64,000 nucleotides of DNA from positions 63,375-127,374 of the forward strand of contig JBCCGH010000003.1 of NCBI GenBank assembly GCA_039029375.1, in the 5' to 3' direction. The stretch comes from Planctomycetota bacterium (GTDB lineage Bacteria > Planctomycetota > UBA1135 > UBA2386). Position numbers and translations under genes: made by a program. The notes under the pieces were generated by a model, which saw only the letters and a program-made list of their open reading frames with translations, searched no databases and had not been told where the DNA came from. Shown here piece by piece: positions 36,146-52,637 of the stretch (position 1 is the first letter of the stretch; every line of letters begins with the position of its first letter).

Positions 36146-36673
36146 ATGACCGGGGCCAACGATCCCCTGCTCGAGACCAGGCTCTACGACGAGCTCCGAC
36201 GGATCGCGGCGGGCCACCTCGGCCGAGAACGCGACGACCACACGCTCCAGCCCACGGCGCTGGTGCACGAGGCGTGGGTCAAGCTCGCCAAGCAGCACGA
36301 CGCGCAGATCAACGGTCCGTCCCACTTCTGCGCCGTCGCCAGCCAGGCCATGCGGCGCATCTTGGTCGATCACGCGCGGGGCAGGCACGCGGACAAGCGC
36401 GGCGCGGGCGCCGACCGAGTGACGCTCGCCGCGGTCGACGGTGACGATCTCGCGTCGGGCGCCAACGACCAGCCCGAAGTCCTCGCGCTCGACGGCGCCC
36501 TCGACAAGCTGGCGGCCGTCAGCCGGCGGCAGGCCAAGGTCGTCGAGATGCGCTTCTTTGGCGGGATGAAGATCGAGGAGATCGCCGACGTTCTGGGGGT
36601 CTCGACGCGCACCGTTGACGGCGATTGGCGCGTTGCCCGCGCGTGGCTGCAGCGTGAGATGCATCGCGCCTGA
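36146..36673 (+). CDS. ECF-type sigma-70 factor (kinase-associated, TIGR02999-like)
   Basis: LYDELRRIAAGHLGRERDDHTLQPTALVHEAWVKL; RRILVDHARGRHADKRG; VVEMRFFGGMKIEEIADVLGVSTRTVDGDWRVARAWL. It lies 34 nt downstream of the TPR kinase. Confidence 0.85.
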   Translation: MTGANDPLLETRLYDELRRIAAGHLGRERDDHTLQPTALVHEAWVKLAKQHDAQINGPSHFCAVASQAMRRILVDHARGRHADKRGAGADRVTLAAVDGDDLASGANDQPEVLALDGALDKLAAVSRRQAKVVEMRFFGGMKIEEIADVLGVSTRTVDGDWRVARAWLQREMHRA

Positions 36674-36719
36674 GCGGAGGTCGCCGGCCGCCCAGAGCCC
36701 CCATCGCCACCTAGCAGAG

Positions 36720-37889
36720 CTAGTGATCCAGTGCCCGGGCGGCGCGGACCGTCAGCATTGATGTGCCGATAGTCGGGATCCCGGGCGTGGCGGTAGGCGG
36801 AGCGGCTCTTGCGTGCGTCGCCATACATCTCACCGCCGCGGACGACGCGCCGCCGATTCTTCGATCCCAGCCGCAGCCCGTCCCGTGGACGCCAGGGCAG
36901 CGTGTAGGGGCCGAACGCGTCTTGGCACCACTCGGCCAGGTTGCCCGCCATTCCGTGCAGGCCAAACGCGTTCGCCTCAAACCGATGGACCGGCGCCGAC
37001 ATGTCGACGTAACCATCGGACCACGGCTCACACACGAAGATCGCGCCGCCGGGAACTTCGGCGAGCGCCGCGTCGGCAAGGTTCACGGCGCCCCGCAGCG
37101 AGTCGCGCTGCGCGCCGGTCCACCATGGCGTCTGTGTCCCGGCCCGCACGGCATACTCCCATTGGCACTCGGTCGGCAGCCCAAGGCCAGCCCGCGCGAG
37201 GATGCGCGTGGCCTCGTCCCAGCTGAGGCTATCGACGGGTGTGATCGCGGCGACCTCTGGATCAAACACGTGCGCGGATGGATCTCGCCCGGCGACGCGG
37301 CGCCACTGCGGCCGCGTCGTCTCATACTTACCGATGAAGAACGGCTCGAGCTCGACTGGATGCACGGGCTGCTGGGAGGGCCAGGCGAGGGGGTCGTAGC
37401 CAGGTGCTTCGGGACGGTTCCCAAGCCGAATGCGCTCGGCCGCCTGGGCCCGCACCACGATCGTCGTCAGCAGGACGACGAGCACGAGCGTCACGACCCC
37501 GGAGAGCGCGGCCGCTGTGCCGCGATTCCGGCGCACCCAGCGCACCAGCTCGGCCGCCGGCCCGGATCGGTGCGCGCGCATCGCGCGCCCCTCTAGGAAC
37601 GCGCGAACATCGCTCGCGATGGCGTCGGCCCGCACGCGCTCGTCGGCGGATTGCGCGCGCCCCCGCAAGGCGAGCAACGCCGGATCACGCGTTCCACTCG
37701 CAGCGAGAAGGGCCCCGACGAGCGGCACAGACGTAGCGACTCCGCCAGCCCTGGGTGCTGCGCACATAGAGCCGCGAAGTGGGTACTGTCGTCGGGCCGA
37801 TGCTCGGCGGCGAACTGACAGAAGACCGACTCCGCCGCCGAGAAGGAGGTGAAGTCCGGCGGGGCTGTCATGGGGCCCACTCTTGCCAC
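36720..37889 (-). pseudogene. Kinase-less, frame-disrupted paralog of the kinase-FGE receptor (TM + SUMF1/FGE-type domain)
   Basis: The N-terminal 45 aa are in frame 0 (MTAPPDFTSF...FAALCAQHPGLAESLR). The middle is in frame 1: juxtamembrane DVRAFLEGRAMRAHRSG...WVRRNRGTAA, a TM segment, then an FGE domain (CQWEYAVRAG...GLHGMAGNLAEWCQD...VVRGGEMYG...SAYRHARDP). The last 12 aa return to frame 0 (MLTVRAARALDH, stop at 36720), matching the paralog tail YGLRAARAL. The kinase core is absent. Confidence 0.6.
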
Positions 37890-37939
37890 GAGCCCGTAGC
37901 GTGCGCAACCCCTGTGCGGTCCCGCGGCGCGTGGCCGCG

Positions 37940-40840
37940 TCAGGGGTTCAGCACCCAGACGATGCCGTTGGAGACGTCGAACGTTCCCACCCCACTCGAG
38001 GGCGTCGTCAGCGCCTGCAAGGCCACGCGCGCGCCGGCCAGTGCCGGGTTGTTCGGGAGCGGGAGCGCGGTCTGCCAGCTGCCCGCGGCCGGGATCGCCG
38101 CCAGCGCGTAGAACGCCTGGATCGCGTCGAAGTAGATCGGCAGGCCGGCAAACGACAGGATGGATGGCGCCGGCAGCCCGACGATCACCACGGCGGCCGA
38201 GCCGGCAACCGGCGCGTTGCCCTGCAGCCCGACGGTTTGTCCGATGATCGGGTCACCCGTCGTCAGCGTCGGCGCCGGGCCCACGCCGCGAGTGCCCCCC
38301 GGGTGGACCGGCGTCGCGACGGCGCCGACATCCAACCGAAACAGCTCGGTCCCGGTCGAGCCGTCGTCCGCGGCCAGCAGTGCGCCCCCGCGATAGCCCA
38401 CAGCCGCGTGCGCGTCGGCCGCGCGCCGCAGGGCCTCGCCGGCGCCTGAGCCGGGCCCGGGCTGCAGATCCACGGCGAGCTGGGTGCCGGCCACCGTGCC
38501 ATCGGTCAGCCACACCTCTCGACCCTTCGCATCGTCCGCCGCGGTGAACAGCAGAGTCGCGTTGCCGAGCCGCGCGAAATCCGCCGGCTGTGACGAGGCC
38601 GGGCCCGGTCGCAGCTCAGCGAACAACGCGGTCCCCGCCGGCGTCCCGTCGCTGCGCCACAGCTCTGATCCGGTCACGGTCTCGCGACCCGAGAACCACA
38701 AGTGATCCGCAAACAGGACCATCTCGTTCATGCTGCCCGTCGTGCTATGGTCGACCGCCAGGACCGTGCCCGCGGTCGTTCCGTCGCTGACCCAGATCTC
38801 CCGCCCGACCACGTCGTTGCGAGCGGTAAACCAAAGGCGATCGTTCCAGGCGACCAGATCTTGGGGCGCGGCGTGATTCGGGCACGTGTAGTACGGGTAG
38901 CCGCAGTAGCTGAACCCGGGATAGATGTCCTTCACCAGCCGCGTACCGGCCGCCGTGCCATCCGTCACCCACAGCTCCGCCCGTTCAAACCCGCCGAAGA
39001 ACCCCGGCACCAGCTGCGCGAAGAACACGTCGGCGCCGACGCGGGTGAAGTCCGTACCGAGCACCCCCGGCGAACCAGACGTCACGGCCACGGTTCCCAA
39101 CGCGGTGCCGTCGGTCCTCCAGATCTTGGCCTGGGGATCGGCGGCCGAGAACCAAACCTCACCGTCCACCGCCGACAGACCCTGCGGGTCGGAGCCAATC
39201 GAGCCGGGCAGAAGGTCGACCAACAGGCGTGTGCCGGCAGTGGTCCCGTTCGTGACCCACAGCTCGCTCCCGCTCGCCGACGTCGTGGCCGCAAACACCA
39301 CCAGGTTGCCCACCCGCGTCATCTGGCTCGGCTCCGAACTCGTCGGTCCGGGCTCGAGATCGAGCAGCATGCTCGTGCCCGCCGCGGTGCCGTCGGTCAC
39401 CCAGAGCTCGCGGCCCGCCGCGAGAGTCCGGGCCGAGAACAGCGTCCGATCGAGAAGATCGCAGGCATCCCGCGGGTCGCTGCCGACCGGTGATTCGGGC
39501 ACCAGGTTCGCAAACAGCCGCGTCCCGCCGACCGTGCCGTCGGTCTCCCAGACTTCGAAGCCGGCCGTCACGCTACGCCCGCGGAAGAACACGCGGCCGG
39601 ACGTTGGCGAGCGATAGAACCCGCGCGGCCGTGGGCTCGGGCCGGTGAACGAGTGCAACAACGCCGTACCGGCGGTGGTCCCGTCGCTGACCCAAAGTTG
39701 TCCTGTGGAGCCACCGTCATCCAGCGAGAACACCGCGCGGCCACCCGGGAGCTCCGCGGCCTCGCCCTGCATCATGCGCACGGTGCCGGTGCCGGGGTCG
39801 AGGTCGAAGATCGACTGGGTGCCGGCGGCCGTTCCGTCCGTGGCCCACAGCTCGGTGGAACCAAACGACCAGAACACCGCGCGGTTGCCCGCCGGATGCA
39901 CTGCCCACGGCGTCGGCGCGGCCGTGGGCACAGCCATGGTTCCCGCAACCGTCGCGTCGGTGACCCACAACCTCTGATCGCCATGGAACACGATCTGGTT
40001 GCCGATCGCCGCGCGCAGGTCCAGGCGGCCACCACTACCGGTGCCCGGCCGGGTGTCCGCCAGCAGCTCCAGCTGGTCGACGTCCAACCAGTAGGGCTCG
40101 CGCCCTACGCCGAAGGTCGAGTTGTGGAGAACCAGACGATCGTTGAGGACCAAGAGGTCCGTCACGCTCTGCCGCGCCGAGCCCGCGACCGCGGGCTCGG
40201 TCCCCGCGGGCGTGCCGTCCGTCCGCCATAGCGCGCACCCTCGGACCCCGTCACAGGCACGGAAGTAGATCTGCCCCTGAAACTCGGTGAAGTCGGAGGG
40301 GCTGCTCGGCCCGCTGCCCGCCACGATTTGCGCCAGCGGTCGGGGGTTCGTTCCGGCCACATCCACAATCCACGGCTCCAAACCGCTGACGCCGTCGCTG
40401 CCCGAGAAGACGATCGAGTTGCCGAAGGGGGCGATTTCTTCGATGTCCGTGCGGCCGGAGACCCCCGGCAACGGCACCGGACGCGTGCCCGCCACCGTGC
40501 CGTCCGACATGAAGAGCGTGCGGTCGCCCGACGGATCCGCCAACGCCGAGAACCACAAGTGGCCGGCGTGATACACCAGGTTCTCCGGCATCGACCACCC
40601 GCGCGAATAGATGTCGATCGCGGTCACCGCGCGGGTCGCCAGATCGATGACGGCCAGCTCCTGACCGATGCTCGGAAACTGCGCCGAGCAGAACAGCAAT
40701 CCCCCGCCTTCGGCGAAGAACTGCGGGCTCGACGACTGAACCACGAAGCCGGGCTCGAGATCGCCGAGGCTGGTCGCCACTTGGGCGGGCACAGCGGGCA
40801 AGCACGGGAGGAGAACGGCTAGGACAAGGCGTGAGGACAT
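37940..40840 (-). CDS. Secreted ELWxxDGT-repeat protein with the shared C-terminal domain
   Basis: Signal peptide MSSRLVLAVLLPCLPAVPAQ begins at ATG 40840. About 15 repeats contain ELW(V/R/K)(T/S)DGT.AGT (ELWVTDGTAAGT, ELWRSDGTPAGT and so on). The C-terminus is ...LPLPNNPALAGARVALQALT.... Confidence 0.85.
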   Translation of the reverse strand: MSSRLVLAVLLPCLPAVPAQVATSLGDLEPGFVVQSSSPQFFAEGGGLLFCSAQFPSIGQELAVIDLATRAVTAIDIYSRGWSMPENLVYHAGHLWFSALADPSGDRTLFMSDGTVAGTRPVPLPGVSGRTDIEEIAPFGNSIVFSGSDGVSGLEPWIVDVAGTNPRPLAQIVAGSGPSSPSDFTEFQGQIYFRACDGVRGCALWRTDGTPAGTEPAVAGSARQSVTDLLVLNDRLVLHNSTFGVGREPYWLDVDQLELLADTRPGTGSGGRLDLRAAIGNQIVFHGDQRLWVTDATVAGTMAVPTAAPTPWAVHPAGNRAVFWSFGSTELWATDGTAAGTQSIFDLDPGTGTVRMMQGEAAELPGGRAVFSLDDGGSTGQLWVSDGTTAGTALLHSFTGPSPRPRGFYRSPTSGRVFFRGRSVTAGFEVWETDGTVGGTRLFANLVPESPVGSDPRDACDLLDRTLFSARTLAAGRELWVTDGTAAGTSMLLDLEPGPTSSEPSQMTRVGNLVVFAATTSASGSELWVTNGTTAGTRLLVDLLPGSIGSDPQGLSAVDGEVWFSAADPQAKIWRTDGTALGTVAVTSGSPGVLGTDFTRVGADVFFAQLVPGFFGGFERAELWVTDGTAAGTRLVKDIYPGFSYCGYPYYTCPNHAAPQDLVAWNDRLWFTARNDVVGREIWVSDGTTAGTVLAVDHSTTGSMNEMVLFADHLWFSGRETVTGSELWRSDGTPAGTALFAELRPGPASSQPADFARLGNATLLFTAADDAKGREVWLTDGTVAGTQLAVDLQPGPGSGAGEALRRAADAHAAVGYRGGALLAADDGSTGTELFRLDVGAVATPVHPGGTRGVGPAPTLTTGDPIIGQTVGLQGNAPVAGSAAVVIVGLPAPSILSFAGLPIYFDAIQAFYALAAIPAAGSWQTALPLPNNPALAGARVALQALTTPSSGVGTFDVSNGIVWVLNP

Positions 40841-40968
40841 AGCGAGCGTGGGGCGACGACCGTCGACCGGATCATGGTAGCCCGGCAACCAGGGGCGGCG
40901 CGCCGCTGCGCCGATCGCCGCACGCCTGGAGGCGGTTCCCAGGACGCCACGATCTCGCCCGGCTCCGG

Positions 40969-41490
40969 CTACCCCCCGATCACCAGATGCTGACCGTTGG
41001 AGAACACCGCCCCGAGGGGGTTGGCGGTCGGCACCAGCGCGACGCCCTGCAGGTAGAGGTCCGCACCGATCAACCCCGGATGGGTCAGCCGAAACGAGAC
41101 AGAAGGGGCTGCACCGAGACCCGGTGCCGCAACGCGGCCATCGACCGCCCTCGGGGCGCGCTCCTTCTCCGTCGCGGACGACGGCGGGACCAGAGTACGG
41201 GCCACGCCCCTCCCGGGGAACCCCCACGCCGGCGGAGCAAGTCAGCCCGAGAGTTGGCCGCCGGTCGCAGCACGAAGCATCCGCGCTGCCGACGAGGAAC
41301 GCGTCCCAGCTCGTGAAGGCGGCGCAGCTCGTGCCCGGGAACGTGAACGGCAGGGCGCCAAACAGGCCGGTCGTGTCACTCGCGCCCAGCACCGCCACCA
41401 CCGGCGCCGAGGCGCCGAGGTCCCGTGCGAGCCGCCCCACGGCGCTGGCGACTTCTGGTCCGGCAAGGTCACCGGGCCGAAGTCCCAGCG
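40969..41490 (-). pseudogene. Orphan, frameshifted copy of the shared C-terminal domain
   Basis: One frame at 41490-41270 reads ...APVVAVLGASDTTGLFGALPFTFPGTSCAAFTSWDAFLVG. A second frame at 41200-40969 reads ...SVSFRLTHPGLIGADLYLQGVALVPTANPLGAVFSNGQHLVIGG then stop. Both parts align to the C-terminus of 1442-3259. There is no signal peptide or N-terminal domain. Confidence 0.55.
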
Positions 41491-41513
41491 CTCGTCACCG
41501 CGCGATCCGAGCC

Positions 41514-42638
41514 TCACCCACCGGCGCCGGGGGTGGACGGCGAATCTTCACGCGCCGCCGCCGGACACAGCGCGCGCGCTGCCATGTAGAGGGTGACCAA
41601 CGCGCCTTCGGCGACCATGATCGACAGCGCCGGCGCGGCCAGGAGGGCGTCCACGTCACCGCCGCCGCAACCGCGCTGCAGGATCAGAGCGCCCACGTAG
41701 AAAACCAGCAGGGCCGCTGGCGTGACGCGCGCGCGGCGCCCCATGTGCGCTCCAACCGCGAGAACCAGCCGCAGCGCGCCGAGTCCGGCGAGCGCGATCA
41801 ACGGCACCTGCAGCCAGGCCGAATGCGGCAGTAGACGCTCGCAAACGACGCCGTCGAACGGCGCCGTCCCGCCCATCGCCACGCTGCTGACGCCGCCGGC
41901 CGCACCGAGCACGATCACGGTCAGCACGACCCACGGCAGCACGCGGGACTGCATCGCCACGGTGGGGACCGGCCGGCCGGGGCAGCGTCGCACCGCGCGC
42001 GCTCCCAGCAACAGGGTGACGGCCAACGCCAACAGCAGGCCAAACCCGGGCACCAGCAGGTAGATGCCCGCCCGCGGCCCGCAGGCGACCGCCAAGCCCA
42101 AGCCCGCCCCGACGGCCAGCGCCGACACCGCCGCCACCAACAGGCGCCGCAGGCCGCGGTGCTGGGCGATCAGCACCGGGAAGCCCATCAAGACCAGGGT
42201 CGCGAGCCCGCCAAACGCGGCGACCGGCGTGGCGGCCCGCAACACGTAGCCATCGGCTCCCGCCGGTGGCAGCGCCGCCAGCGCGAGGCACGCGAAGAGC
42301 GCAGTCAGGCGCCCCCGCGTCATCAGCACCGTGAGATAGAGCAGCCCAGTCACGACGAGCAACCCGAGCACGGCGGCGCGGCGCGCCTGCGGCAGGAGCT
42401 CGCGGCTGGCGGGCGCCCCCGCCTTGATCGCGTCTCGCGGCACCGCGGCGCCGTAATACGACACCAGGGCGCTGCCCACGGCGTCGGCCGACGGCGCCTC
42501 GAGAGCGCGCGCCAACGCCTCGGGCTCGCCGAGCCGCGGCGGCTGATCGATCCCTACGCCACCAACCAGGGCGGGCAGCAAGAGGATCGCCAGCGTCAGG
42601 GCAGCGCCCCAAACGCGGCGCGAGACAGCGCCGCTCAT
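41514..42638 (-). CDS. Polytopic membrane protein of unknown function
   Basis: About 9 hydrophobic segments (AALTLAILLLPALVGGV, VLGLLVVTGLLYLTVLM, IYLLVPGFGLLLALAVTLLLG and so on). The ATG at 42638 lies 23 nt after the ridA stop. Confidence 0.55.
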   Translation of the reverse strand: MSGAVSRRVWGAALTLAILLLPALVGGVGIDQPPRLGEPEALARALEAPSADAVGSALVSYYGAAVPRDAIKAGAPASRELLPQARRAAVLGLLVVTGLLYLTVLMTRGRLTALFACLALAALPPAGADGYVLRAATPVAAFGGLATLVLMGFPVLIAQHRGLRRLLVAAVSALAVGAGLGLAVACGPRAGIYLLVPGFGLLLALAVTLLLGARAVRRCPGRPVPTVAMQSRVLPWVVLTVIVLGAAGGVSSVAMGGTAPFDGVVCERLLPHSAWLQVPLIALAGLGALRLVLAVGAHMGRRARVTPAALLVFYVGALILQRGCGGGDVDALLAAPALSIMVAEGALVTLYMAARALCPAAAREDSPSTPGAGG

Positions 42639-42660
42639 CGGCAAGGCCGCTCCGTGGCGC

Positions 42661-43056
42661 TCAGCGCAGAGCGATGCAATCGATCTCGACCAGACCGTTC
42701 TTCGGCAGAGTCTTGACCGCGAGCGCCGCACGGGCGGGTTTCACGCCGGGAAAGAACTCGGCGTACACCTCGTTGACGGCGACGAAGTCCGCCATGTCGG
42801 CGAGATACACCGTCGTGCGCACGACGCGATCCATGCTCGTGCCGGCCGCCTCGAGCACCGCGCCGAGGTTGGTCAGGGCGCGGCGGGCCTGCTCGGCGGC
42901 GGTTGCTCCCACCATCTCGTTGGTCGTCGGGTCGAGGGCGACTTGACCGGAGCAGAACACCAGGTCACCGGCGACGATGGCCTGGTTGTAGGGCCCAATG
43001 GCCTTGGGGGCGGCGTCGGTGTTGATCGCTTTCTGAGTCACGGCAGCTCCTCGCAA
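42661..43056 (-). CDS. ridA: RidA/YjgF/TdcF family reactive-intermediate deaminase
   Basis: APKAIGPYNQAIVAGDLVFCSGQVALDP ... RTTVYLADMADFVAVNEVYAEFF...PARAALAVKTLPKNGLVEIDCIA. Confidence 0.9.
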   Translation of the reverse strand: MRGAAVTQKAINTDAAPKAIGPYNQAIVAGDLVFCSGQVALDPTTNEMVGATAAEQARRALTNLGAVLEAAGTSMDRVVRTTVYLADMADFVAVNEVYAEFFPGVKPARAALAVKTLPKNGLVEIDCIALR

Positions 43057-43074
43057 GACGCGGCGGGATGAAGA

Positions 43075-43578
43075 TCAAGAGGCGGGACGAGGCGGAGCCT
43101 GCTCGGTCAAACGCTGCCGCAGCCGCGCCTCGACCTCGGGCGAGAGAAAGTCCGAGACATCGCCGCCATTGCGCACGATGTCCTTGATGAGGGTCGACGA
43201 GATGTACGAGTAGCGAGCACTGGGCATCACGAACACCGTCTCGACCTCGTCATTGAGGTGGCGGTTGGTCAGCGCCATCTGGTACTCGTACTCAAAGTCG
43301 GAGGCCGTGCGCAGACCGCGCAGGACGATGCGGTGACCTTCGCGCCGGCAGTAGTCGACGACGAGGCCGCGGAACGCGACGACGGACACGCGCGGCGAGT
43401 CCGGCAGCGCCAGGCGCAGCAGCTCCAAGCGCTCGTCGAGGGAAAACACCGTGCGCTTGGAGATGTTCTCGGCGGCGGCCACGGTCACGGAATCGAAGAT
43501 CTCGAGCGCGCGCTCGACCAAGTCCAGGTGGCCGCGCGTGACCGGATCGAAGCTGCCTGGATAAAGCGCGGACGCCAT
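43075..43578 (-). CDS. coaD: Phosphopantetheine adenylyltransferase
   Basis: ALYPGSFDPVTRGHLDLVERA ... VVRGLRTASDFEYEYQMALTNRHL ... ISSTLIKDI. The start is ATG 43578. Confidence 0.92.
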   Translation of the reverse strand: MASALYPGSFDPVTRGHLDLVERALEIFDSVTVAAAENISKRTVFSLDERLELLRLALPDSPRVSVVAFRGLVVDYCRREGHRIVLRGLRTASDFEYEYQMALTNRHLNDEVETVFVMPSARYSYISSTLIKDIVRNGGDVSDFLSPEVEARLRQRLTEQAPPRPAS

Positions 43579-43652
43579 GGCGCTTCGATCGTAACCGTCT
43601 GACGCTGCGAGGCACGGAGACATTGGGGCCGGCGACGCGCGGCCGCCGCGTC

Positions 43653-45833
43653 ATGCCGCCCGCCTCTCCCAGCCGCCTCCTGGTGCTCGCCGCGCTCGCC
43701 GCGGCGGCGGGCGTGATCACCGTGCGGATGGGCGGGCTCGTGGCTGCCGCTGGTGTTTGCACCGCGGTGGTCGGCGTGACGGTCTGGGCGCGGCGGGCGG
43801 GTCCGCTGCTGGTCGCCGTGCCGGCGGCGCTGGGCGCGATCACCCCGCCCCCGGCCGCCGTGGCGTGGCCGCCGCCGGGACCGGTCGCGATCGACGGCCG
43901 CGTCCTCGCCGGCGTGGTCCGCGACCCCCGCTCGGCCACGGCGAGAGTTCGCCTGGCGCCGACCGGCGGGGCGCCGTGGTTTTGGTGCGAGGTGGGTGGC
44001 GAGCTGCCGGTGCTCCCCGGGGACCGGGTGCACGGCATCGCGCGGCTGGGGCCGCAGCCGCATCGCCGCCGTGCCGACCGGCCCCCCGTGGTGCGCGCGC
44101 AAGCCGGGGCGCTGCATCGCGAAGCCGGCGGGCCGTCCATCGCGCGCCTCGCCGACGCCTGCCGACTGCGCCTCCAGGCCGAGCTCCTCGCCCGGGTCCC
44201 CGGCACCTCCGGGCTGCTGCTTTGTCACCTAGTGCTCGGCCGCGGGCCGCCGTTGCCGCAAGACTTGGTCGACGCGCATCGGGACAGTGGGCTGGCCCAC
44301 CTCCTCGCGGTCAGCGGCGCCCATGCCAGCATGCTGGGACTCTTGCTCGGCCTCGGCTACGCGCACACCGCGCGGCGCTCGCCGGCACACAGTCGCGGGC
44401 ACCGCCGATTCTGTGCCGCGTTCCTCATCCTCTACGGCCTGATCACCGGCCTCGAGCCACCGGTGCTGCGGGCCGTCGTCGCGTTTTGTGCCGTGGCGCA
44501 GCTGCGCGCGCGCGGCCGACGCGCCACGGTGACCGCGGCGCTGGCGCTCCCGGCTCTGCTCACCGCGCTGCTGGTGCCGGACGATCTGCTGTCGCCCAGC
44601 TTCTGCCTGAGCTATGCCGCAGTGATCGGCCTCGCCCTGGGCGGGGCGTTTCGAGCCGAGAGCTGGACGGGACGTTGGCTCGCCACACCGCTGCGCAGCT
44701 CGATGTGGGCGTCGCTGTTGACGGCACCTCTGACCCTCGTCTACTTCGGTCAGCTGGCCCCCTGGGCCGTCGCCGGCACACCGCTGCTCGCCCCGCTGGT
44801 CGGCCTCATGCTGGCCGGAGGCATCGTGGTCGCCATCCTCGGCCTGGTGCTACCCGTCGTCGCCGATGTGGGCGCCCTGCCACTCGGTGCGGCGACCCAA
44901 GTCTACGGTTGGGCCGTCGGCGCCTTCGCCGCTCTGCCCGGAGCCCCCGTGCTCGCCCACTGCCAACCACCGTTGGGCGCACTGCTCGGCTTGGGCCTGA
45001 TCGGCGCTGCGGCGATCGCCGCTCGCCCGCGGCGTAGCACCGTGGCCGCACTGTGTGTGGCGTGGAGCACCGCGCACTTTGCACCGGCGCCAGCGCCTCC
45101 GCTCGGCCTGACCTTGCTGTCGGTCGGCCACGGCCAAAGCGCACTCGCAACCCTGCCCGGCGGCGTCACGGTGCTCGTCGACTGCGGCAGTCTGGGCAAC
45201 CCGCGACGCGCGGCACGGGCCGCCGCCACGGCGCTGCTGCCGCGGCGCAGGCTCGATTGGCTGCTGATCACGCACGCCGACTTCGATCACGTCGGCAGCG
45301 TGCCGTCGCTCCTGCGCCAAGTGGCCATCCGTCACGCTGTACTGCCCACTGAGGTGGCGGCGGGGCCGGCCGGCCGCGCGTTGCGGCAGAGCGGCACGAC
45401 CGTGTTGAGCCTGCGGGCCGGCCAACGCGCCACCCCGGCACCAGGCATTCTCGCGTTTCGCCCCGCCGCGGCCGACGCCGCTGGCGCCAACGACCGCGGC
45501 CTGTGGGTGCGGCTGTCGCTCGAGGGCTTCGCCGTCTGGTTGCCCGGCGACGCCGAAGAACCGGGCGTGGCGGCCTGGCTGCGCGCGGTGCGGCAACCGA
45601 ATGCCGACGTGCTCGTGCTGCCACACCACGGCCGCGCGCACGCCCTCGCCGCCGACTTGCTGCGGGCGGTGCGGCCACGCCTCGCTCTGGTCTCCAATCG
45701 CGAAACGACCGCCAGCGCACAAGCTGCGGTCGCGCGCCAGCTCGGGGTGGCGGTGCTTGAGACGGGCCAGACCGGCGACATCGTCGTCCGCGGCGATCGG
45801 GTCGAGACCGAGATCCGCGCGCTGCCTTGGTGA
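43653..45833 (+). CDS. comEC: ComEC/Rec2-family DNA internalization protein with C-terminal metallo-beta-lactamase domain
   Basis: The protein has many TM segments. Competence-domain motif: SGLAHLLAVSGAHASMLG. MBL part: LTLLSVGHGQSALATLPGG...VLVDCG ... LLITHADFDHVG ... VLPHHG. The start is ATG 43653; an upstream TTG at 43623 is also possible. Confidence 0.85.
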   Translation: MPPASPSRLLVLAALAAAAGVITVRMGGLVAAAGVCTAVVGVTVWARRAGPLLVAVPAALGAITPPPAAVAWPPPGPVAIDGRVLAGVVRDPRSATARVRLAPTGGAPWFWCEVGGELPVLPGDRVHGIARLGPQPHRRRADRPPVVRAQAGALHREAGGPSIARLADACRLRLQAELLARVPGTSGLLLCHLVLGRGPPLPQDLVDAHRDSGLAHLLAVSGAHASMLGLLLGLGYAHTARRSPAHSRGHRRFCAAFLILYGLITGLEPPVLRAVVAFCAVAQLRARGRRATVTAALALPALLTALLVPDDLLSPSFCLSYAAVIGLALGGAFRAESWTGRWLATPLRSSMWASLLTAPLTLVYFGQLAPWAVAGTPLLAPLVGLMLAGGIVVAILGLVLPVVADVGALPLGAATQVYGWAVGAFAALPGAPVLAHCQPPLGALLGLGLIGAAAIAARPRRSTVAALCVAWSTAHFAPAPAPPLGLTLLSVGHGQSALATLPGGVTVLVDCGSLGNPRRAARAAATALLPRRRLDWLLITHADFDHVGSVPSLLRQVAIRHAVLPTEVAAGPAGRALRQSGTTVLSLRAGQRATPAPGILAFRPAAADAAGANDRGLWVRLSLEGFAVWLPGDAEEPGVAAWLRAVRQPNADVLVLPHHGRAHALAADLLRAVRPRLALVSNRETTASAQAAVARQLGVAVLETGQTGDIVVRGDRVETEIRALPW

Positions 45834-45917
45834 GTTCGGCGCATCCCGCCCCACCGCCTACACTGACGCGAGTGCAAAACCTGGGACGGCACGCACAACT
45901 CGAGGAAACTGCTCAAC

Positions 45918-47378
45918 GTGAAACCAAATCCACGCGCCCACGGGATGGCGATGCTCGGCCTGCTCGGGCTGTGGGTCGCGGGAGCCCCATCCCTCCGCGC
46001 CCAGACCAAGCGACCCAACGTGCTGCTGCTAATGGCGGACGACCTAGGCTTTGGCGATACCGGCTACAACGGCCACAAGGTGCTGCAAACGCCACACCTT
46101 GACGCCATGAGCAGAGAAGGCGTCCGCTTCGATCGCTTCTACGCCGCGTCACCGGTCTGCAGCCCAACGCGTGCGTCGTGCCTCACCGGCCGCCACGGTG
46201 CGCGCAGCGGCGTGCTGCGCACCGCGGCGCCGTACTTGCCGCCGGACGAAATCTGCCTCGCCACGATTCTCCGCGACCAAGGCTACGTGACCGGGCATTT
46301 CGGCAAGTGGCACCTGGGGGCGTTCCAAGCCGCGGAGAACGGCAAGCAGCGCCGCACGTGCACGCCCGACCAGCACGGGTTTGACGAGTGGTTTAGCACC
46401 GAGCGCTACGTGCCGACGTTCGACCCGCACGATGCGGCCGAGGACATCGACCTCATCGAGGCCACCGCGTCCGAAGGCCCCGCGGACTCGCGGTATCGCC
46501 ACAATGGTCGCGAGGTCGAGGAACCGCTCAAGGGCGACGACAGCCGCATCGTCATGGACCGCACCCTGTCGTTCATCAATCGCGCCGCCGCCGACTCGCG
46601 CCCGTTCTTCGCCGCAGTCTGGTTTCACTCACCCCATGCGCCCATCACCGGGGCGCCGGAGTTCTTGCGCCACTACCCCGACCGCTGTCAGGGTGAGCAG
46701 CACTACTTCGCGTGCGTCTCCGGGCTCGACGCGCAGGTCGGCCGGCTGCGCGCGGCACTGCAATCGCTGGGCGTGGACCGCGACACGATGCTGTGGTTCT
46801 GCTCGGACAACGGTCCCGAGGGCATGCCCGGGCCCAAGCGCCGACTGCGCGGGAGCACCGGCGGCTTGCGGGGCCGCAAGCGCTCGCTCTACGAAGGCGG
46901 GATCCGAGTCCCCGCTCTGCTGTGCTGGCCGGCGGCCTTCGCGACGCCGCGGGTGATCGAGAGCCCGGCCGTCACCAGCGATTTCTTTCCGACCGTGCTC
47001 GACGCGATCGGGGTGCCGCTGCCCGGCAATCGCATCTACGACGGCGTCAGCCTGATGCCCCTGTTACGCGGGGAGACCAGCAAGCGAGGCCGACCGATCG
47101 CCTTCCACCACCGCTGGCAAGACGCGCTCTGCGGCTCCCGCTTCAAAGTCGTGCGCAATCGGCGCGGCAAGCGGCACATGTCCGACAACGGGTCGGTGCC
47201 GTTCGCCGAGTGGGAGCTCTACGACCTGAGCAGCGACCCGTTCGAGACCACCAACGTCGCGCACGAGTATCGCGAGCGCCTGTTGGCCATGCGTACCGAG
47301 CTCCTGGCCTGGCGCAGCTCTCTGGCCTCGGGCTTCGAGGACGGCACCGAGCCGCCTCGGCCACCGCAGCATCGCTAG
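45918..47378 (+). CDS. Cys-type sulfatase (arylsulfatase family)
   Basis: PNVLLLMADDLGFGDTGYNGH; FGly target motif SPVCSPTRASCLTGR; GKWHLG; NGPE. The signal peptide is MAMLGLLGLWVAGAPSLRAQ. The stop TAG at 47376-47378 lies in a CTAG at the edge of MITE A copy 3. Confidence 0.92.
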   Translation: MKPNPRAHGMAMLGLLGLWVAGAPSLRAQTKRPNVLLLMADDLGFGDTGYNGHKVLQTPHLDAMSREGVRFDRFYAASPVCSPTRASCLTGRHGARSGVLRTAAPYLPPDEICLATILRDQGYVTGHFGKWHLGAFQAAENGKQRRTCTPDQHGFDEWFSTERYVPTFDPHDAAEDIDLIEATASEGPADSRYRHNGREVEEPLKGDDSRIVMDRTLSFINRAAADSRPFFAAVWFHSPHAPITGAPEFLRHYPDRCQGEQHYFACVSGLDAQVGRLRAALQSLGVDRDTMLWFCSDNGPEGMPGPKRRLRGSTGGLRGRKRSLYEGGIRVPALLCWPAAFATPRVIESPAVTSDFFPTVLDAIGVPLPGNRIYDGVSLMPLLRGETSKRGRPIAFHHRWQDALCGSRFKVVRNRRGKRHMSDNGSVPFAEWELYDLSSDPFETTNVAHEYRERLLAMRTELLAWRSSLASGFEDGTEPPRPPQHR

Positions 47379-47490
47379 AGGACCGGCGAGGAATCTGTGT
47401 CGTTCGCATCGCGCAGTCGCCGCCAGGCTTGTTGGTGGACGAGTTGAGGCGACGCGACATGCGCCCACTCGACGCTGAACAGGCGGGTCG
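47375..47490. mobile_element. MITE-like element A, copy 3 (inverted orientation, truncated, lacks the terminal inverted repeats)
   Basis: cggcgaggaatctgtgtcgttcgca ... gcttgttggtggacgagttgaggcgac matches the reverse complement of the core of 30216-30384. It starts at CTAG 47375-47378. Confidence 0.6.
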
Positions 47491-47573
47491 CTCGACCTCG
47501 GGCTCGGCGGCAGCTGGGCTCCTGCCTCAGGTCGAACGCGCCGGCGCTGGTCCGGCCACGGAAACGGCGTAGC

Positions 47574-47594
47574 GCGGGCAAGAAACCCGCTTTT
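47574..47594 (+). terminator. Weak rho-independent terminator candidate
   Basis: gcggg-caagaaa-cccgc followed by tttt. The stem is only 5 bp. Confidence 0.3.
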
Positions 47595-47676
47595 CGCCTT
47601 CGGTTCCGTCTCGCCCCCGCGATCGGAATAGAGTCGACCTAACGCGGGAGGCCCAAGTCGTCACCTTGGACAATCA

Positions 47677-49866
47677 ATGATGGAGCAAGACCGACCCCTC
47701 CGGCCGCAGGCGCGGCCGAATCTCGCATTCCCCCTGGCGCTGGCGCTGGCGATCCCCCTCGCCAGCACAGCAGCAGTCGCACAGCGGAATCACATCGCCA
47801 ACTCGCACCCGACCGGGATCGAGGTCGACGCCGGTGGCGTCGCCTACTTCGCGGCCTCGCAGGAAGCGACGGGCGCCGAGCTGTGGCGGTCGGACGGCAC
47901 ACCCGGGGGCACGGTGATGGTCGCGGACCTGGAGCCCGGGCCGCGCGGCTCCTATCCCGACGACATCACCCCCACGCCAGGCGACACGTTCCTCACGGCG
48001 AGCACAGCACGGCTCGGACGCGAGCTCTACGCCACCGACGGGACGCGGACGCGGCTGGTCCGGGACATCGAGGACCAAGCGGGCTCGGATCCACGCGACC
48101 TCACGCCGGTGGGCAACCTGCTGTTCTTCACCGCGTACGAGGAGGATCACGGGCGCGAGCTCTGGGTGACCGACGGCACGACCCCCAACACGGTGCGCAT
48201 TGAAATCGTACCGGGCAAGAGCGGTGCTTCGCCCCATCACCTCACCGCGCTCGGCTCGAGGCTGATCTTCGCGGCGACCGACCGCACTGGCGACACCGAG
48301 ATCTGGACCGCCAACGGAACGCCCGCCGGGCTCCGGCGCCTCGCCGACATCCATCCGGCGGAGAGCTCGCGCCCGAGTGACCTGGTGAAGTTCCGCGGCG
48401 AGGTCTACTTCGCGGCGACGTCGCTCACGCGCGGCCGCGAGCTGTGGAAAACCGACGGCACCCCGGCCGGCACCATGATGGCCGCGGATGTGCTCCCCGG
48501 CACGGCGGGCTCCGACCCCGACCAGCTGGTGCCCGGCCCGACGCACCTCGCGTTCACGGCCTGGCTCCCGGGCGCGGGCCGCGAGCTGTTTGAGATGGAC
48601 GTCACCGGCACGGTCAGGCTGCTGAGCAACTTCATGGCCGGGGAGACCCTGTCCAACCTGACCGCCAACCCGGCCCCCAGCGCGCCGATGAGCCCCCGGT
48701 TCTGGTGCACGGTCGACGAGCCAGGCTTTGGGCACGAGCCGTGGCAGATCATCAGCGGGGCCGCCCCGACCCCAGTGGTCGACTTGCAGCCGGGCAACCT
48801 GGACTCACACCCGACCAACCTGACGCCGTTGGGCGACGCGCTGGTCTTTCGCGCCGACGGTGGCGGCGTGGGGTCGGAGCTGTGGTGCTCCAACGGCGTC
48901 GTGACCAGTCTCGTCGCCGACATCCGGACCGGCCTGGGGCCCAAGGGCCCGAAGAGCTCGGACGCAGCACGGCTCACGTCCGGCGCGCCGGGCGAGTTCT
49001 GGTTTGCGGCCGAGAGCGAGTGCGCCGGCATCGAGCTGTGGAAGACGGACGGCCACCGCGCCTGGATGGTGCGTGACATCGATCCCGGCGTGCCGCTGCC
49101 GCAGCTCGACGCGGTGACGCAACGGCGTGGCGTGTCGCTGTGCCTGACGGACGCGCCGGCACTGGTGCCGGGGCTGTTTGGGGTCAGTGGTGGCATCCCG
49201 CCGGTCCCGCTGAGCGTGCCCACGGTCCGCGGGGCGATCATGATCGACATCTTCACGCCCGGAGCAGCGGTGTTCGTCCCGTTCGTCACCGACGGCGGCG
49301 GCAACGCGCAGGCGAATGTGGGGTTCCCAACCCAGGCACAGGGCTTTCTCGGTCCGTTGGCGTGGCAGGCCTTTGCGCTCGAGACCGGGTCGTCGCCGTG
49401 CGCGGTGAGCGAAGGCGCTGAGCGTGCAGGGGCCGACGGCGACGCGGCCACCGAGGTCGTCGTCTGCAGTAGCAACATCACGTGCACGCTCGTGGGGGGT
49501 GGGCCCACGCCGGACGGCGCAATCGTCAGCGGGACCGGCAGCGCCTGTGACGACACGGGGCGGTACATCATCGAGATCCGCCGCGTCGACGTGACCGGTC
49601 GCCCGGCCCATCTCGTCGCCGTTCGCATCAAGCCCAGCGGCGAGATGGTCCTCCTCGACCCCAGCGAAATCGACCAGGGCGACCCCATCGTGCCCATCCG
49701 CTCGGGCCAATCGCTCCGGCTGCACGGCTTCGTGAATCTCTACACGGCGGTCAACCCCGACGACCCACTCAGCGGGGCGGACGCGATCGGGCTGCTGCTG
49801 TTCGACGAGCCGCCGGCACAATCCGAGCTCTCCGTGTGCGCGCTGGTGTGGCGCTCCTACTGCTGA
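47677..49866 (+). CDS. Secreted ELWxxDGT-repeat protein 2, with an internal copy of the shared domain and an extra C-terminal region
   Basis: Signal-like N-terminus: LAFPLALALAIPLASTAAVAQ. Repeats: ELWRSDGTPGGT, ELWVTDGTTPNT, EIWTANGTPAGL, ELWKTDGTPAGT, ELWCSNGV, ELWKTDGHRAW. The shared-domain-like segment is at about 49129-49416. About 150 further aa end in ...CALVWRSYC. Confidence 0.85.
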   Translation: MMEQDRPLRPQARPNLAFPLALALAIPLASTAAVAQRNHIANSHPTGIEVDAGGVAYFAASQEATGAELWRSDGTPGGTVMVADLEPGPRGSYPDDITPTPGDTFLTASTARLGRELYATDGTRTRLVRDIEDQAGSDPRDLTPVGNLLFFTAYEEDHGRELWVTDGTTPNTVRIEIVPGKSGASPHHLTALGSRLIFAATDRTGDTEIWTANGTPAGLRRLADIHPAESSRPSDLVKFRGEVYFAATSLTRGRELWKTDGTPAGTMMAADVLPGTAGSDPDQLVPGPTHLAFTAWLPGAGRELFEMDVTGTVRLLSNFMAGETLSNLTANPAPSAPMSPRFWCTVDEPGFGHEPWQIISGAAPTPVVDLQPGNLDSHPTNLTPLGDALVFRADGGGVGSELWCSNGVVTSLVADIRTGLGPKGPKSSDAARLTSGAPGEFWFAAESECAGIELWKTDGHRAWMVRDIDPGVPLPQLDAVTQRRGVSLCLTDAPALVPGLFGVSGGIPPVPLSVPTVRGAIMIDIFTPGAAVFVPFVTDGGGNAQANVGFPTQAQGFLGPLAWQAFALETGSSPCAVSEGAERAGADGDAATEVVVCSSNITCTLVGGGPTPDGAIVSGTGSACDDTGRYIIEIRRVDVTGRPAHLVAVRIKPSGEMVLLDPSEIDQGDPIVPIRSGQSLRLHGFVNLYTAVNPDDPLSGADAIGLLLFDEPPAQSELSVCALVWRSYC

Positions 49867-49876
49867 ACGGCACCCC

Positions 49877-52621
49877 ATGAGCGACGCATCGCGGCGCGTG
49901 GCCGTCGACCTGCCGGTCGCCCTTGAGGAGGAGCTCGATCGTGTCCTCGCCGCGGACCCGGACAGCCAGTTCGCGGAACTCGATCGACTATGCGGCAGTC
50001 ACCCCGCCCACGCGCCGTCCATCCGCGCGCGGTTCGCGGACTGCCAGACCTTGGTGCGCCACCTCGACGGCCTCGGTGAGTCGCTGGGTGGCCCGCCGCA
50101 GACGATCGGCCCCTATCGCGTCCTCGATGCACTCGGCGAAGGCGCCATGGGCGACGTCTACCTCGCCGAGCAACGCGAGCCGGTCGTGCATCGCGTGGCG
50201 ATCAAAGTGATGAAGCTCGGCATGGACTCGCGCCGGTTCTTGGCGCGCTTCAACGCCGAACGGCAAGCCCTGGCGCTGATGGAGCACGACTACATCGCCA
50301 AGGTGCTCAACGCCGGGGCCACGGACCGCGGCCGCCCGTACCTGGTGATGGAGTACGTGAAGGGCGTGCCGCTCACCGAGTATTGCGACGCGCAACGCCT
50401 GTCCGTGCGCGAGCGCGTGCAGCTCATACGACAAGTCTGCGCCGGCGTGCAACACGCGCACCAGAAGGGGGTCATCCACCGCGACCTGAAGCCGAGCAAC
50501 ATCTTGGTGACCGTGCAGGGTGACCAGGCCGTGCCCAAGATCATCGACTTTGGCCTCGCGCGAGCCGCCGACCATCGCCTGGCGCGCGGCACGCTGCTGA
50601 CCGAAGAGGGCCACTGGATCGGCACGCTGCCCTACATGAGCCCGGAGCAGGCCGGCACCACGCGGCTCGACATCGATACACGGGCCGATGTGTACGCGCT
50701 CGGGGTCCTGCTCTACGAGCTACTCACCGGCGACCTGCCGCTGCGCCCGGACGACCCGAGCGACTTCGACCGAGTGGAGATGGCGCGACGCATCCGCGAA
50801 GAAGAGCCGGCCAAGCCCAGCTCGCGCGTCGCACACCTCGGCCAGGGGGCGCCCGGCAATGCAACGGCCAGCGCGCTCGCAACGAAGCGGCGCTGCACGC
50901 CGCAAGCCCTGCAACGCCAGCTGCGCGGCGACCTCAACTGGATCACGCTGAAGGCTCTCGAGAAAGACCGCACGCGGCGCTTCGAATCCGCCGACGCCCT
51001 GGCCGCGGCGCTTGGCCACTACCTGCGCGACGAGCCGGTCGGCGTCGGCCCGCCCGCCCGCTGGGGCCGAGTGGTCAAGTTCGTCCGCCGCAACCGGACC
51101 GGCGTGATCGCGGCCGGGCTGCTGGCGGCGACGGTCGTGACCGGTGGCGTCGGCATGACGGTGATTGCCGCGGATCGCGCGCGGGTGCTGCGCGACTACC
51201 GCAACCTCACGATCGGCGGCAAGCTCGATGAGCTCGCGTCGCGAGCGGCAGCCGCGCACCCGCCATGGCCCGATCAGACATCGGAGCTCGGCGAGCTCGT
51301 CGCGACCGCAGAGGAGCTCGTCGCGCAACGAACGACGCTGGAAACCGCGATCGCCGGGTTGCGGCGCGGCCACCAGGGCCCGGAGGGCACCACGCGCCCG
51401 CCGCGCCGCGGTGCCTACGGTGAGAGCGCGCGCCGGGCCAAGCTGGCGCAACTCGTGCAGAAGCTGGACTTCGAGCTCGCCGAGTACGCCGGCGAGCTCC
51501 CCGCCGCGGTGCTGCGCGCCGAGCGCGCGGAGCGCGACCGCATCGCCGACGTCGAGGCCGCGCTGCGCGTGCGCGCGGCCGAATCGGCGCGGGTCGAGCG
51601 GCCCGACGCGGACCTGCAGTTCTTGCACGACCGCCTGGAGAACCTGCTGGGACGCCTGCGCGTGGTGCACGGCGAGCTGCTGCCAGACCTGCGCTGGCGC
51701 CTCGACTGGTCGCGGCGAATCCGCGCCGAGTCGGTCGACGCCTACCGTGACGCCTGGGCGCAGGCGCGCCGCGAGGTGGAGCAGACGCCAGCTTATCGGG
51801 GACTCACGCTCGCGCCACAGATCGGGTTGGTGCCCCTGGGCGCCGACCCCGACAGCGGGCTCCAGGAGTTCGCGCACCGGGCGTCGGGGACGGTCCCGAC
51901 ACGCGGTGCGGGCAGCCGCCTCGAGCTCAACCAAGAGCACGGCATCGTGTTCGTGCTGCTGCCGCCTGGCGTCGTCCACTTCGGCCGCGGCAAGAGCTCC
52001 GACCCCACCCGGCCGCCGCCGCACGGACGCTACGACGCGCTCGAGATCGAGGCGGTGTTGATGGCCAAGCACGAGCTGAGCCGAGCGCAGTGGGCCCGGC
52101 TGGCGCGCGGCCGGTCCGGCCTACAGCTCCGCGAGACCGCCGCCGATCTCCGCAACCGATCGGGGAAGCAGCTTGCCAAGCCAATGAACGTCGTGAGCTG
52201 GTTTGCTGCCGTGCGCCTCCTGGACGAGTATGGGCTGACCCTCCCGCGCGAGGCCGAATGGGAGTACGCCTGCAAGGCCGGCCGGGAGACGCGGTGGCAC
52301 TACGGGGACGACACCGTGACCCTTCAAGACGCGGCGAACGTGCGCTTCGACGGCATGGGAAGCAGGCGCCCTCTGCTACCGGTCTTCGCGCCGCTGCGGC
52401 CCAATGCCTTTGGCCTCCTGCACATGCACGGCAACGTCTGGGAGTGGTGCCGAGACCTCCGCGGCGAACCCACCGGTGACCATCGGGCGCTGCGCGGGGG
52501 CTCTTGGCAGCGGCCGCCGGGTGTCGCCGAGACGACGTATCGCAACAGCGCGACCCCAGACGTCGTCGTGCGCGAGTATGGACTGCGCGCCGCGCGCGCG
52601 TTGCGGCCGGAGTCGCGGTGA
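49877..52621 (+). CDS. Receptor Ser/Thr protein kinase with TM, long coiled coil and C-terminal SUMF1/FGE-type domain
   Basis: Kinase motifs: GEGAMGDVY, VAIK, HRDLKPSNIL, DFG, PYMSPEQ. TM segment: VIAAGLLAATVVTGGVGMTVIAA. A helical region of about 300 aa follows. FGE domain: EWEYACKAG...GLLHMHGNVWEWCRD...LRGGSW...YRNS...YGLRAARAL. The start lies 10 nt after the ELW gene stop. Confidence 0.92.
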   Translation: MSDASRRVAVDLPVALEEELDRVLAADPDSQFAELDRLCGSHPAHAPSIRARFADCQTLVRHLDGLGESLGGPPQTIGPYRVLDALGEGAMGDVYLAEQREPVVHRVAIKVMKLGMDSRRFLARFNAERQALALMEHDYIAKVLNAGATDRGRPYLVMEYVKGVPLTEYCDAQRLSVRERVQLIRQVCAGVQHAHQKGVIHRDLKPSNILVTVQGDQAVPKIIDFGLARAADHRLARGTLLTEEGHWIGTLPYMSPEQAGTTRLDIDTRADVYALGVLLYELLTGDLPLRPDDPSDFDRVEMARRIREEEPAKPSSRVAHLGQGAPGNATASALATKRRCTPQALQRQLRGDLNWITLKALEKDRTRRFESADALAAALGHYLRDEPVGVGPPARWGRVVKFVRRNRTGVIAAGLLAATVVTGGVGMTVIAADRARVLRDYRNLTIGGKLDELASRAAAAHPPWPDQTSELGELVATAEELVAQRTTLETAIAGLRRGHQGPEGTTRPPRRGAYGESARRAKLAQLVQKLDFELAEYAGELPAAVLRAERAERDRIADVEAALRVRAAESARVERPDADLQFLHDRLENLLGRLRVVHGELLPDLRWRLDWSRRIRAESVDAYRDAWAQARREVEQTPAYRGLTLAPQIGLVPLGADPDSGLQEFAHRASGTVPTRGAGSRLELNQEHGIVFVLLPPGVVHFGRGKSSDPTRPPPHGRYDALEIEAVLMAKHELSRAQWARLARGRSGLQLRETAADLRNRSGKQLAKPMNVVSWFAAVRLLDEYGLTLPREAEWEYACKAGRETRWHYGDDTVTLQDAANVRFDGMGSRRPLLPVFAPLRPNAFGLLHMHGNVWEWCRDLRGEPTGDHRALRGGSWQRPPGVAETTYRNSATPDVVVREYGLRAARALRPESR

Positions 52622-52637
52622 ATGCGACTCATCGAGC

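Follow-up and report, generated by a model that had tools for sequence, protein, structure and literature searches.

A secreted ELWxxDGT-repeat propeller and a receptor kinase with a non-catalytic FGE-fold ectodomain: a possible two-gene signalling unit in a Planctomycetota bacterium

The DNA analysed here (hereafter the window) is a stretch of 64,000 nucleotides with a G+C content of ~70%, taken from contig JBCCGH010000003.1 of a Planctomycetota bacterium (GCA_039029375.1). On its plus strand it holds a gene for a secreted ELWxxDGT-repeat protein (ELW2) and, directly downstream, a gene for a receptor Ser/Thr kinase whose C-terminal domain has the fold of formylglycine-generating enzyme (FGE). 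We refer to these as pair 2, and to a second ELW gene (ELW1) with the apparent remains of a kinase-FGE gene, on the minus strand, as pair 1. Our tentative reading is that pair 2 constitutes a two-gene signalling unit, with the ELW propeller as an accessory of the FGE-like kinase sensor. The evidence consists of the architecture of the two proteins, the loss of the catalytic cysteines from the ectodomain and the recurrence of the gene pairing beside some close relatives.

Architecture of the pair-2 proteins

Pair 2 and the domains of its kinase are as follows.

47677-49866, plus strand: ELW2, secreted ELWxxDGT-repeat protein of 729 aa (TIGR04534 match)
49877-52621, plus strand: receptor Ser/Thr kinase of 914 aa (Pkinase and PF03781 matches)
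50114-50797, plus strand: Hanks kinase domain, residues 80-307 (Pkinase, E 3.4e-42)
51101-51157, plus strand: transmembrane helix, residues 409-427 (single hydrophobic segment, preceded by RRNR)
~51167-51790, plus strand: helical stalk (structure model)
~51950-52597, plus strand: FGE-fold ectodomain (PF03781 at residues 692-907, E 4.5e-25)

The two genes are separated by 10 nt, an operon-like spacing. An earlier reading made from the letters of the window and their open reading frames (ORFs), the sequence-only reading, had placed both genes at these positions and at this distance, and the TIGR04534 and Pfam matches bear it out.

ELW2 consists of a signal peptide, a β-propeller of ~9 blades (residues ~40-475) and a C-terminal domain of 250 aa. 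Its match to TIGR04534 (E 2e-96, 315.9 bits against a curated cut-off of 65 bits, 7 scored repeats) lies far above the threshold, as does that of ELW1, and both proteins share with this family tandem repeats of ~47 residues. A protein from a metagenome-assembled genome (MAG) that is 100% identical to ELW2 carries the NCBI label ‘ELWxxDGT repeat protein’, Planctomycetota bacterium. The N terminus, with a hydrophobic segment at residues 16-34 followed by AVA-Q, is signal-peptide-like. In an AlphaFold2 (AF2) model built on a 36-sequence alignment, residues 40-475 form an all-β structure of about nine four-stranded blades, with a predicted local distance difference test (pLDDT) score above 90 across most of residues 40-330. 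Foldseek searches with the propeller retrieved the Vps10p domain of sortilin and the propellers of LRP6/LRP2 and GH74, with E-values of ~1e-9 to 1e-10 for sortilin and LRP6. The best of these structural matches, sortilin Vps10p and the YWTD propeller of LRP6, are large multi-bladed ligand-binding propellers; at 9-12% identity and TM-scores of 0.2-0.38 the resemblance is one of fold class, not of homology or shared function. The tools show ELW2 as a protein that is predicted to be exported and, in the model, to fold as a large β-propeller.

The C-terminal 250 residues of ELW2 (49117-49866) have no Pfam match and are modelled with low AF2 confidence. A Cys-containing C-terminal region of ~250 aa is common to ELW2 and its likely ortholog at the related locus L081 (L081 10000-10708), and both proteins have ...SYC as their C-terminal residues.

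The kinase comprises, in order, a pre-kinase leader, the Hanks kinase domain, a transmembrane helix, a stalk and the FGE domain, so that the kinase, transmembrane, coiled-coil and FGE layout proposed earlier is retained, with a helical stalk in the place of the coiled coil. Its catalytic motifs are complete (GEGAMGDV for GxGxxG, VAIK, HRDLKPSN, DFG and SPE), and by these tools the product is shown as a predicted catalytically competent Hanks-type kinase. It is 100% identical to a MAG protein that NCBI names ‘bifunctional serine/threonine-protein kinase/formylglycine-generating enzyme family protein’. The AF2 model of residues 431-914 (pLDDT 83) contains ~200 residues of long helices followed by the FGE fold, and Foldseek matched this ectodomain model to FGEs, TvpA, pFGE and PvdO (TMt ~0.6; E ~1e-11 for the FGE structures). 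Because the kinase domain is N-terminal and residues 409-427 form the single transmembrane segment, the FGE-type domain is predicted to be extracytoplasmic, which supports the earlier placement of this FGE/C-type-lectin-like fold outside the cell.

The ectodomain lacks the catalytic cysteines of FGE

The ectodomain shares its PF03781 family and overall fold with catalytic FGEs such as human SUMF1 and the enzymes of S. coelicolor and T. curvata. It differs from them at the active site and in topology. In a phmmer alignment to human FGE, used to place the Cu(I) ligands C336 and C341, the equivalent residues of the pair-2 ectodomain are Arg and Ala, leaving no Cu(I) site, and an extracytoplasmic domain has the wrong topology for acting on unfolded cytoplasmic sulfatases. 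The loss extends across the subfamily. The C-terminal 300 residues of the kinases (a set of 86) were used for alignment, and among 42 aligned kinase-FGE relatives a Cys occupies the first catalytic position in none and the second in two; the subfamily consensus in this region is RGGSF…ARSA.R. The corresponding segment of pair 1, RGGEMYGDARKSRSAYR, also contains no Cys. Since both Cu-binding catalytic cysteines are lost, the ectodomain can only bind, and it is, judged by these residues, a putative binding module and not a maturase, in agreement with the ligand-binding role proposed for it earlier.

The top PDB sequence match of the ectodomain is TvpA, an FGE-type C-lectin protein without formylglycine (FGly) activity that is regarded as a binding module (PMC5758913). 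Like T. denticola TvpA, human pFGE/SUMF2, PvdO and PorK/GldK, the window domain keeps the FGE fold, has lost the Cys pair and is extracytoplasmic by prediction. Unlike these proteins, it is fused to a transmembrane kinase via a helical stalk of ~200 residues, and the window contains no diversity-generating retroelement (DGR).

Two features upstream of ELW2 bear on the question of a link to sulfatases.

45918-47378, upstream of ELW2: Cys-type sulfatase with a CSPTR motif (motif read)
47574-47594, plus strand: GC-rich hairpin followed by TTTT, terminator-like (read directly; unique in the window)

The presence of the CSPTR sulfatase is confirmed, and together with the PF03781 match and the FGE-like fold it would fit a true formylglycine-generating enzyme that matures its neighbour. 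This is nevertheless very improbable, as the Cu-binding cysteines are replaced by R and A here and are likewise absent across the subfamily, and the predicted topology puts the domain on the outer side of the cytoplasmic membrane. Furthermore, none of 12 related loci obtained by look-up contains a sulfatase (PF00884), and the hairpin sits between the sulfatase gene and ELW2 and would split them into two transcription units. A consensus terminator scanner passed over this hairpin, which has only 4 T residues, and a scan of 47300-53400 for sigma-70 promoters and terminators gave nothing above shuffles; likewise, no common promoter of the extracytoplasmic function (ECF) type and no common 9-mers were found upstream of ELW1, ELW2 and the sigma and kinase genes. 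Because the FGE domain is non-catalytic, with the 12 loci and the hairpin pointing the same way, the FGly link that the sequence-only reading had kept in play can be dropped.

The match to TvpA, itself a DGR variable protein, also raises the idea that the kinase-FGE protein is a DGR target with a hypermutated C-terminal lectin surface, as are TvpA and some cyanobacterial kinase-CLec proteins; one DGR target class joins FGE-sulfatase with a kinase domain (PMC5758913). This too is scarcely credible. When the 3′-terminal 540 nt of each FGE gene were compared with the 64-kb window, nothing resembling a template repeat emerged, the best match being 35 nt, and a reverse transcriptase did not turn up in Pfam scans of the window ORFs. 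A DGR target was consequently rejected within the window for want of such a repeat.

Pair 1 consists of an intact ELW gene and a decayed kinase-FGE gene

The features of pair 1 are as follows.

37940-40840, minus strand: ELW1, secreted ELWxxDGT-repeat protein of 966 aa with 12-16 repeats (TIGR04534)
36720-37889, minus strand: decayed kinase-FGE gene (three-frame translation)
37453-37509, minus strand: transmembrane segment of the decayed gene (second frame)
36757-37392, minus strand: FGE core of the decayed gene (second frame; PF03781, E 3.6e-27)

ELW1 is intact and stands where the sequence-only reading had put it. TIGR04534 matches it with E 8e-140 and 454.8 bits (cut-off 65), finding 12 repeats, whereas a profile hidden Markov model (HMM) built from the window scores 16 units; its N terminus is signal-peptide-like. 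The C-terminal module of ELW1 is unlike that of ELW2 and is common to ELW1 and the ELW protein of another related locus, L084. On the same strand, 670 nt upstream of ELW1, lies a gene for a 405-aa protein (41514-42731, minus strand) with about nine predicted transmembrane segments and no Pfam match.

The neighbouring gene had been taken for an FGE paralog that makes pair 1 the mirror image of pair 2. No single ORF spans it. The frame shared by the start codon (ATG, 37889) and the stop codon (36720) closes at ~37593, and the FGE domain is found in a different frame (ORF 36370-37908) that is open past 36720. The first frame encodes a family-type pre-kinase leader (…ALCAQHPGLAESLR), which an HMM of family N termini matches at 12.5 bits, and the second a post-kinase juxtamembrane tail that aligns with residues 366-458 of the relatives P0065, P0066 and P0075. 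The last 9 codons (VRAARALDH, then the stop) match the family C terminus and are back in the first frame, the shift at ~36750 being read directly. Between these parts the whole kinase catalytic domain is gone, as are the stalk helices and the initial strands of the FGE fold. Because there are two frame changes and two internal deletions, the region 36720-37889 is a putative pseudogene or remnant of a kinase-FGE gene, and not a kinase-less paralog. A start inside it, at 37770, would yield at most a kinase-less anchored fragment. The single-base shifts could be assembly errors, but the deletions are not explained in this way.

Identity between the pairs amounts to 32% for the FGE domains and 30-35% for the ELW proteins, and the FGE core of pair 1 is closer to other MAG proteins (40-45% identity) than to pair 2. 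By these identities the two pairs appear to be old paralogs and not a recent duplication, so that the earlier description of a duplicated pair was overstated. Pair 1 may represent an old, independently derived second case of the ELW and kinase-FGE arrangement, in which ELW1 has survived and the kinase-FGE gene has decayed.

The pairing recurs beside some close relatives

Related loci were collected in three ways. A look-up of close homologs of the pair-2 kinase gave 12 loci; for nine, the alignment covers at least 86% of the query and shows 37-42% identity, whereas the homologs P0002, P0022, P0033 and P0056 aligned over less of the query or came without a figure. A genome-contig profile search with the ectodomain alignment gave 80 loci, which hold 26 kinase-FGE fusion ORFs in 22 loci. 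Finally, a metagenome scan with the ELW single-unit alignment gave 80 ELW loci totalling 948 kb; the same kind of scan with the single protein ELW2 had no matches. The ELW-repeat HMM built from the window recovers all 80 of the 80 independent ELW loci.

Among the 12 close-relative loci, an ELW gene adjoins a kinase-FGE gene in two and lies within 3 kb of one in three. At L081 the ELW gene is downstream of the kinase and overlaps its stop codon by 4 nt; this ELW protein is collinear with ELW2 over 634 residues, at 34% identity. At L168 an 18-repeat ELW gene is flanked on both sides by kinase-FGE genes, the second of which follows it after 48 nt. At L084 the distance is 3 kb, with a Kelch propeller gene between. 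The window and these 12 loci hold five ELW genes between them; four of these stand right beside a kinase-FGE gene and on its strand, with gaps of at most 50 nt or an overlap. The probability of at least two adjacent cases arising by chance outside the window, over 34 loci, is 0.007-0.15, depending on the assumed density of ELW genes.

Several observations weigh against a general association. Within 10 kb of the 26 kinase-FGE genes in the 22 species-representative loci there is no ELW ORF, even with the threshold relaxed to E <= 10, and only one of the 80 ELW loci holds an FGE-domain ORF, 8 kb away; the adjacency that the sequence-only reading had proposed to test thus fails at family level. 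Among the close relatives, nine of the 12 loci lack an ELW gene and show mixed neighbours instead (sigma genes, 340-aa proteins, Kelch, FG-GAP and DUF7948 proteins). The estimate of enrichment is itself soft, resting as it does on an assumed ELW gene density: at an ELW share of 1-2% of all genes, the probability rises to 0.15-0.39. The window was, in addition, selected for the pairing itself. Lastly, ELW1 has been kept beside a decayed kinase, which argues against an obligate partnership.

Taken together, the gene neighbourhoods give no family-level rule and are suggestive of a linkage that recurs in some close relatives whatever the gene order; they support only a linkage that is lineage-restricted and non-obligate. 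The ELW protein as candidate partner, a proposal of the sequence-only reading, is accordingly no more than weakly supported: it is not borne out at family level, and the pairing recurs beside the closest relatives (L081, L168 and L084). The operon-like association with a receptor kinase seen here is not the usual context of TIGR04534 genes, in which an FGE ORF is a rarity. The modelling of the repeats as a propeller of ~9 blades also sets the window protein apart within that family.

Other neighbours of these genes may be recorded here. Several Planctomycetota MAGs carry two or three kinase-FGE paralogs in tandem (L168 1-12883, L170 6701-13246 and L007 500-11935), and in L007 a serine recombinase gene lies between them. 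A large repeat protein is encoded beside kinase-FGE in L084 (Kelch, 991 aa, 10783-13758), L169 (FG-GAP, 972 aa, 2875-5793) and L171 (DUF7948, 886 aa, 7328-9988). These three neighbours provide hints of a looser pattern of a kinase with a big extracytoplasmic repeat protein, which does not extend to distant loci. The stricter proposition that kinase-FGE always stands beside a big secreted propeller was rejected, as distant loci show other kinases, PP2C, recombinase or transaldolase genes.

ECF sigma factors near the two pairs

Two ECF sigma genes and a second receptor kinase gene lie close to the pairs.

36125-36673, plus strand: ECF1, ECF43-type sigma factor (PF07638, E 5.5e-49; TIGR02999, E 9e-57, 191.9 bits against a cut-off of 126)
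33287-36112, plus strand: receptor Ser/Thr kinase with tetratricopeptide repeats (TPR) (Pkinase, E 5e-40; TPR_12, E 2e-69; transmembrane residues 377-399)
52638-53258, minus strand: ECF2, ECF sigma factor (Sigma70_r2, Sigma70_r4; PF07638, E 3e-12)

That each pair faces an ECF sigma gene, as was pointed out earlier, is real as a matter of gene order; ECF2, for example, converges on the pair-2 kinase-FGE gene with 16 nt between the stop codons. A functional significance of the convergence is not supported, because the arrangement is found in none of the 34 other kinase-FGE loci examined.

ECF1 carries LQPTALVHEA in its sigma2.2 region, including the Thr that serves, within the QTTA consensus, as the phospho-site of ECF43 sigmas. 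In ECF43 sigmas, the QTTA Thr is phosphorylated by the cognate Hanks kinase, and the sigmas are thereby activated (PMC13147305, PMC7826278). The kinase-TPR gene precedes ECF1 by 12 nt on the same strand, and its repeats, being C-terminal to the transmembrane segment, are predicted to be extracytoplasmic. The layout of the kinase resembles that of X. citri PknS in the PknS/EcfK system. In the window the kinase gene comes first; L082 also has a sigma and kinase-TPR pair, with the sigma gene first. The kinase-TPR protein is likely the cognate kinase of ECF1, and since ECF1 belongs to this operon (12-nt spacing, the L082 pair and the PknS-like layout), the fact that it converges on the decayed FGE gene is incidental. 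ECF2, by comparison, has the canonical acidic sigma2.2 (DVLQETF), is TIGR02984-like below the cut-off and does not qualify as ECF43-type.

Where a sigma gene adjoins a kinase-FGE gene in the other loci, the two share a strand; the sigma gene immediately precedes the kinase in L010, L167, L172 and L173 and lies downstream of it in L009. The upstream sigmas of L173 and L010 contain LQTTELVHEA. Neither FGE gene of the window has a co-directional sigma neighbour. The kinase-FGE family is thus part of an already known class, the ECF-linked Hanks kinases, and the pair-2 gene is without an obvious cognate sigma. Like X. citri PknS/EcfK and V. parahaemolyticus PknT/EcfP, the pair-2 kinase has a leader, a Hanks kinase domain, a single transmembrane helix and an extracytoplasmic sensor, and its relatives in L173 and L010 lie directly downstream of sigmas with a QTTA-type Thr. 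Unlike those systems, its sensor is an FGE fold on a long helical stalk and not TPR, it has no co-directional sigma, the convergent ECF2 has an acidic sigma2.2, and a propeller gene occupies the predicted operon instead.

A second sigma-like gene (53273-54082, minus strand; weak Sigma70_r2 and a helix-turn-helix; TIGR02937, E 6e-7, below the cut-off) immediately precedes ECF2, shares its strand and would form a tandem sigma pair with it. The window starts inside another ECF1-like sigma gene (3-233, plus strand; E 3e-17 to ECF1), and ~1.2 kb downstream of it is a gene for an FG-GAP repeat protein (1436-3256, plus strand; 6 repeats, E 1e-42).

Possible function of the ELW propeller

Under our preferred reading of pair 2 as a signalling unit, the FGE-like domain would sense an extracytoplasmic ligand, and the co-expressed ELW propeller would be its accessory, either as a binding partner or as a ligand-capturing co-receptor. 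Binding would alter dimerisation mediated by the stalk and hence autophosphorylation of the kinase. The output would be the phosphorylation of cytoplasmic targets, which in this kinase family may often be the ECF43-type sigma encoded directly upstream.

The main rival to this reading is that ELW2 and the kinase are chance neighbours, drawn from two large, expanded Planctomycetota families without functional coupling, which we consider quite possible, if somewhat doubtful. Both families are indeed large: the kinase query filled 8000 of 8000 scored candidates, of which the top-listed were almost all kinase-FGE fusions, and ELW had more than 5900 matches. The tandem kinase-FGE arrays (L007, L168 and L170), the missing association at family level, the predominance of other genes among the neighbours of close relatives and the higher chance estimate at dense ELW genes all favour it. 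Coincidence accounts less readily for the clustering among close relatives, where the four adjoining ELW genes of five occur in 285 kb (window included), for two independent pairs in one 64-kb window, and for a pairing that survives inversion of the gene order with collinear ELW orthologs.

If the linkage is functional, the ELW protein could still be an effector that is secreted or displayed at the surface, such as an adhesin or a glycan-binding protein, and that is co-expressed with or regulated by the kinase and is not its binding partner. ELW genes with their own signal peptides do lie directly downstream of FGE-less Ser/Thr kinases (L143 3-6297, L161 6587-11077 and L096 854-7461), one of which has a TolB/PD40-like C-terminal region. 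Because the kinases of these three loci have other ectodomains or none, the link of ELW may be to receptor kinases generally and not to FGE. Moreover, a kinase-ECF pair adjoins ELW in L086 and lies ~4 kb from it in L120, ELW homologs bear varied anchoring or sorting tails as surface proteins do (type IX secretion, SLH, dockerin and cadherin), and ELW1 persists without a kinase. However, kinases are immediate neighbours in only 3 of the 80 ELW loci and within 10 kb in 6, frequencies not clearly above chance in kinase-rich genomes, and the present data do not separate co-regulation from direct binding. We regard an effector role as distinctly unlikely. The stronger form of our own reading, in which secreted ELWxxDGT propellers are dedicated co-receptors or ligand-presenting partners of FGE/C-type-lectin kinases in one Planctomycetota lineage, we likewise consider unlikely, if a little less so.

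Other features of the window

An MreB/actin-like ATPase homolog is encoded at 56029-57147 (minus strand; PF06723, E 3e-19), followed by two small ORFs on the same strand, one of them AAA_31 (ParA-like). The 558-aa radical SAM/SPASM gene at 14012-15685 was considered as an anaerobic sulfatase maturase (anSME) and ruled out, with no anSME match in NCBIfam. It adjoins, on the minus strand, a hybrid of a non-ribosomal peptide synthetase (C-A-PCP, 10532-14041) and a polyketide synthase (KS-AT-KR-ACP, 5907-10592).

Significance

The ELWxxDGT repeat is not mentioned in the literature searched, and the ELW and kinase-FGE pairing is therefore taken as unreported there. Each component belongs to a known kind, and what emerges is a familiar type of receptor kinase that may have a propeller accessory restricted to its lineage. 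The annotation of the window is corrected in three respects: the ectodomain is non-catalytic by its residues, the second copy appears decayed, and ECF1 is assigned to another kinase. In Planctomycetota MAGs the kinase-FGE fusion ranks with the most frequent receptor-kinase architectures, and ELWxxDGT proteins are abundant across many phyla; an operon partner that recurs reliably would open both families to experiment. Should the dedicated co-receptor role prove true, it would define a bacterial two-component ‘propeller plus lectin-kinase’ receptor and provide a first function for TIGR04534 proteins and for the very common kinase-FGE fusions.

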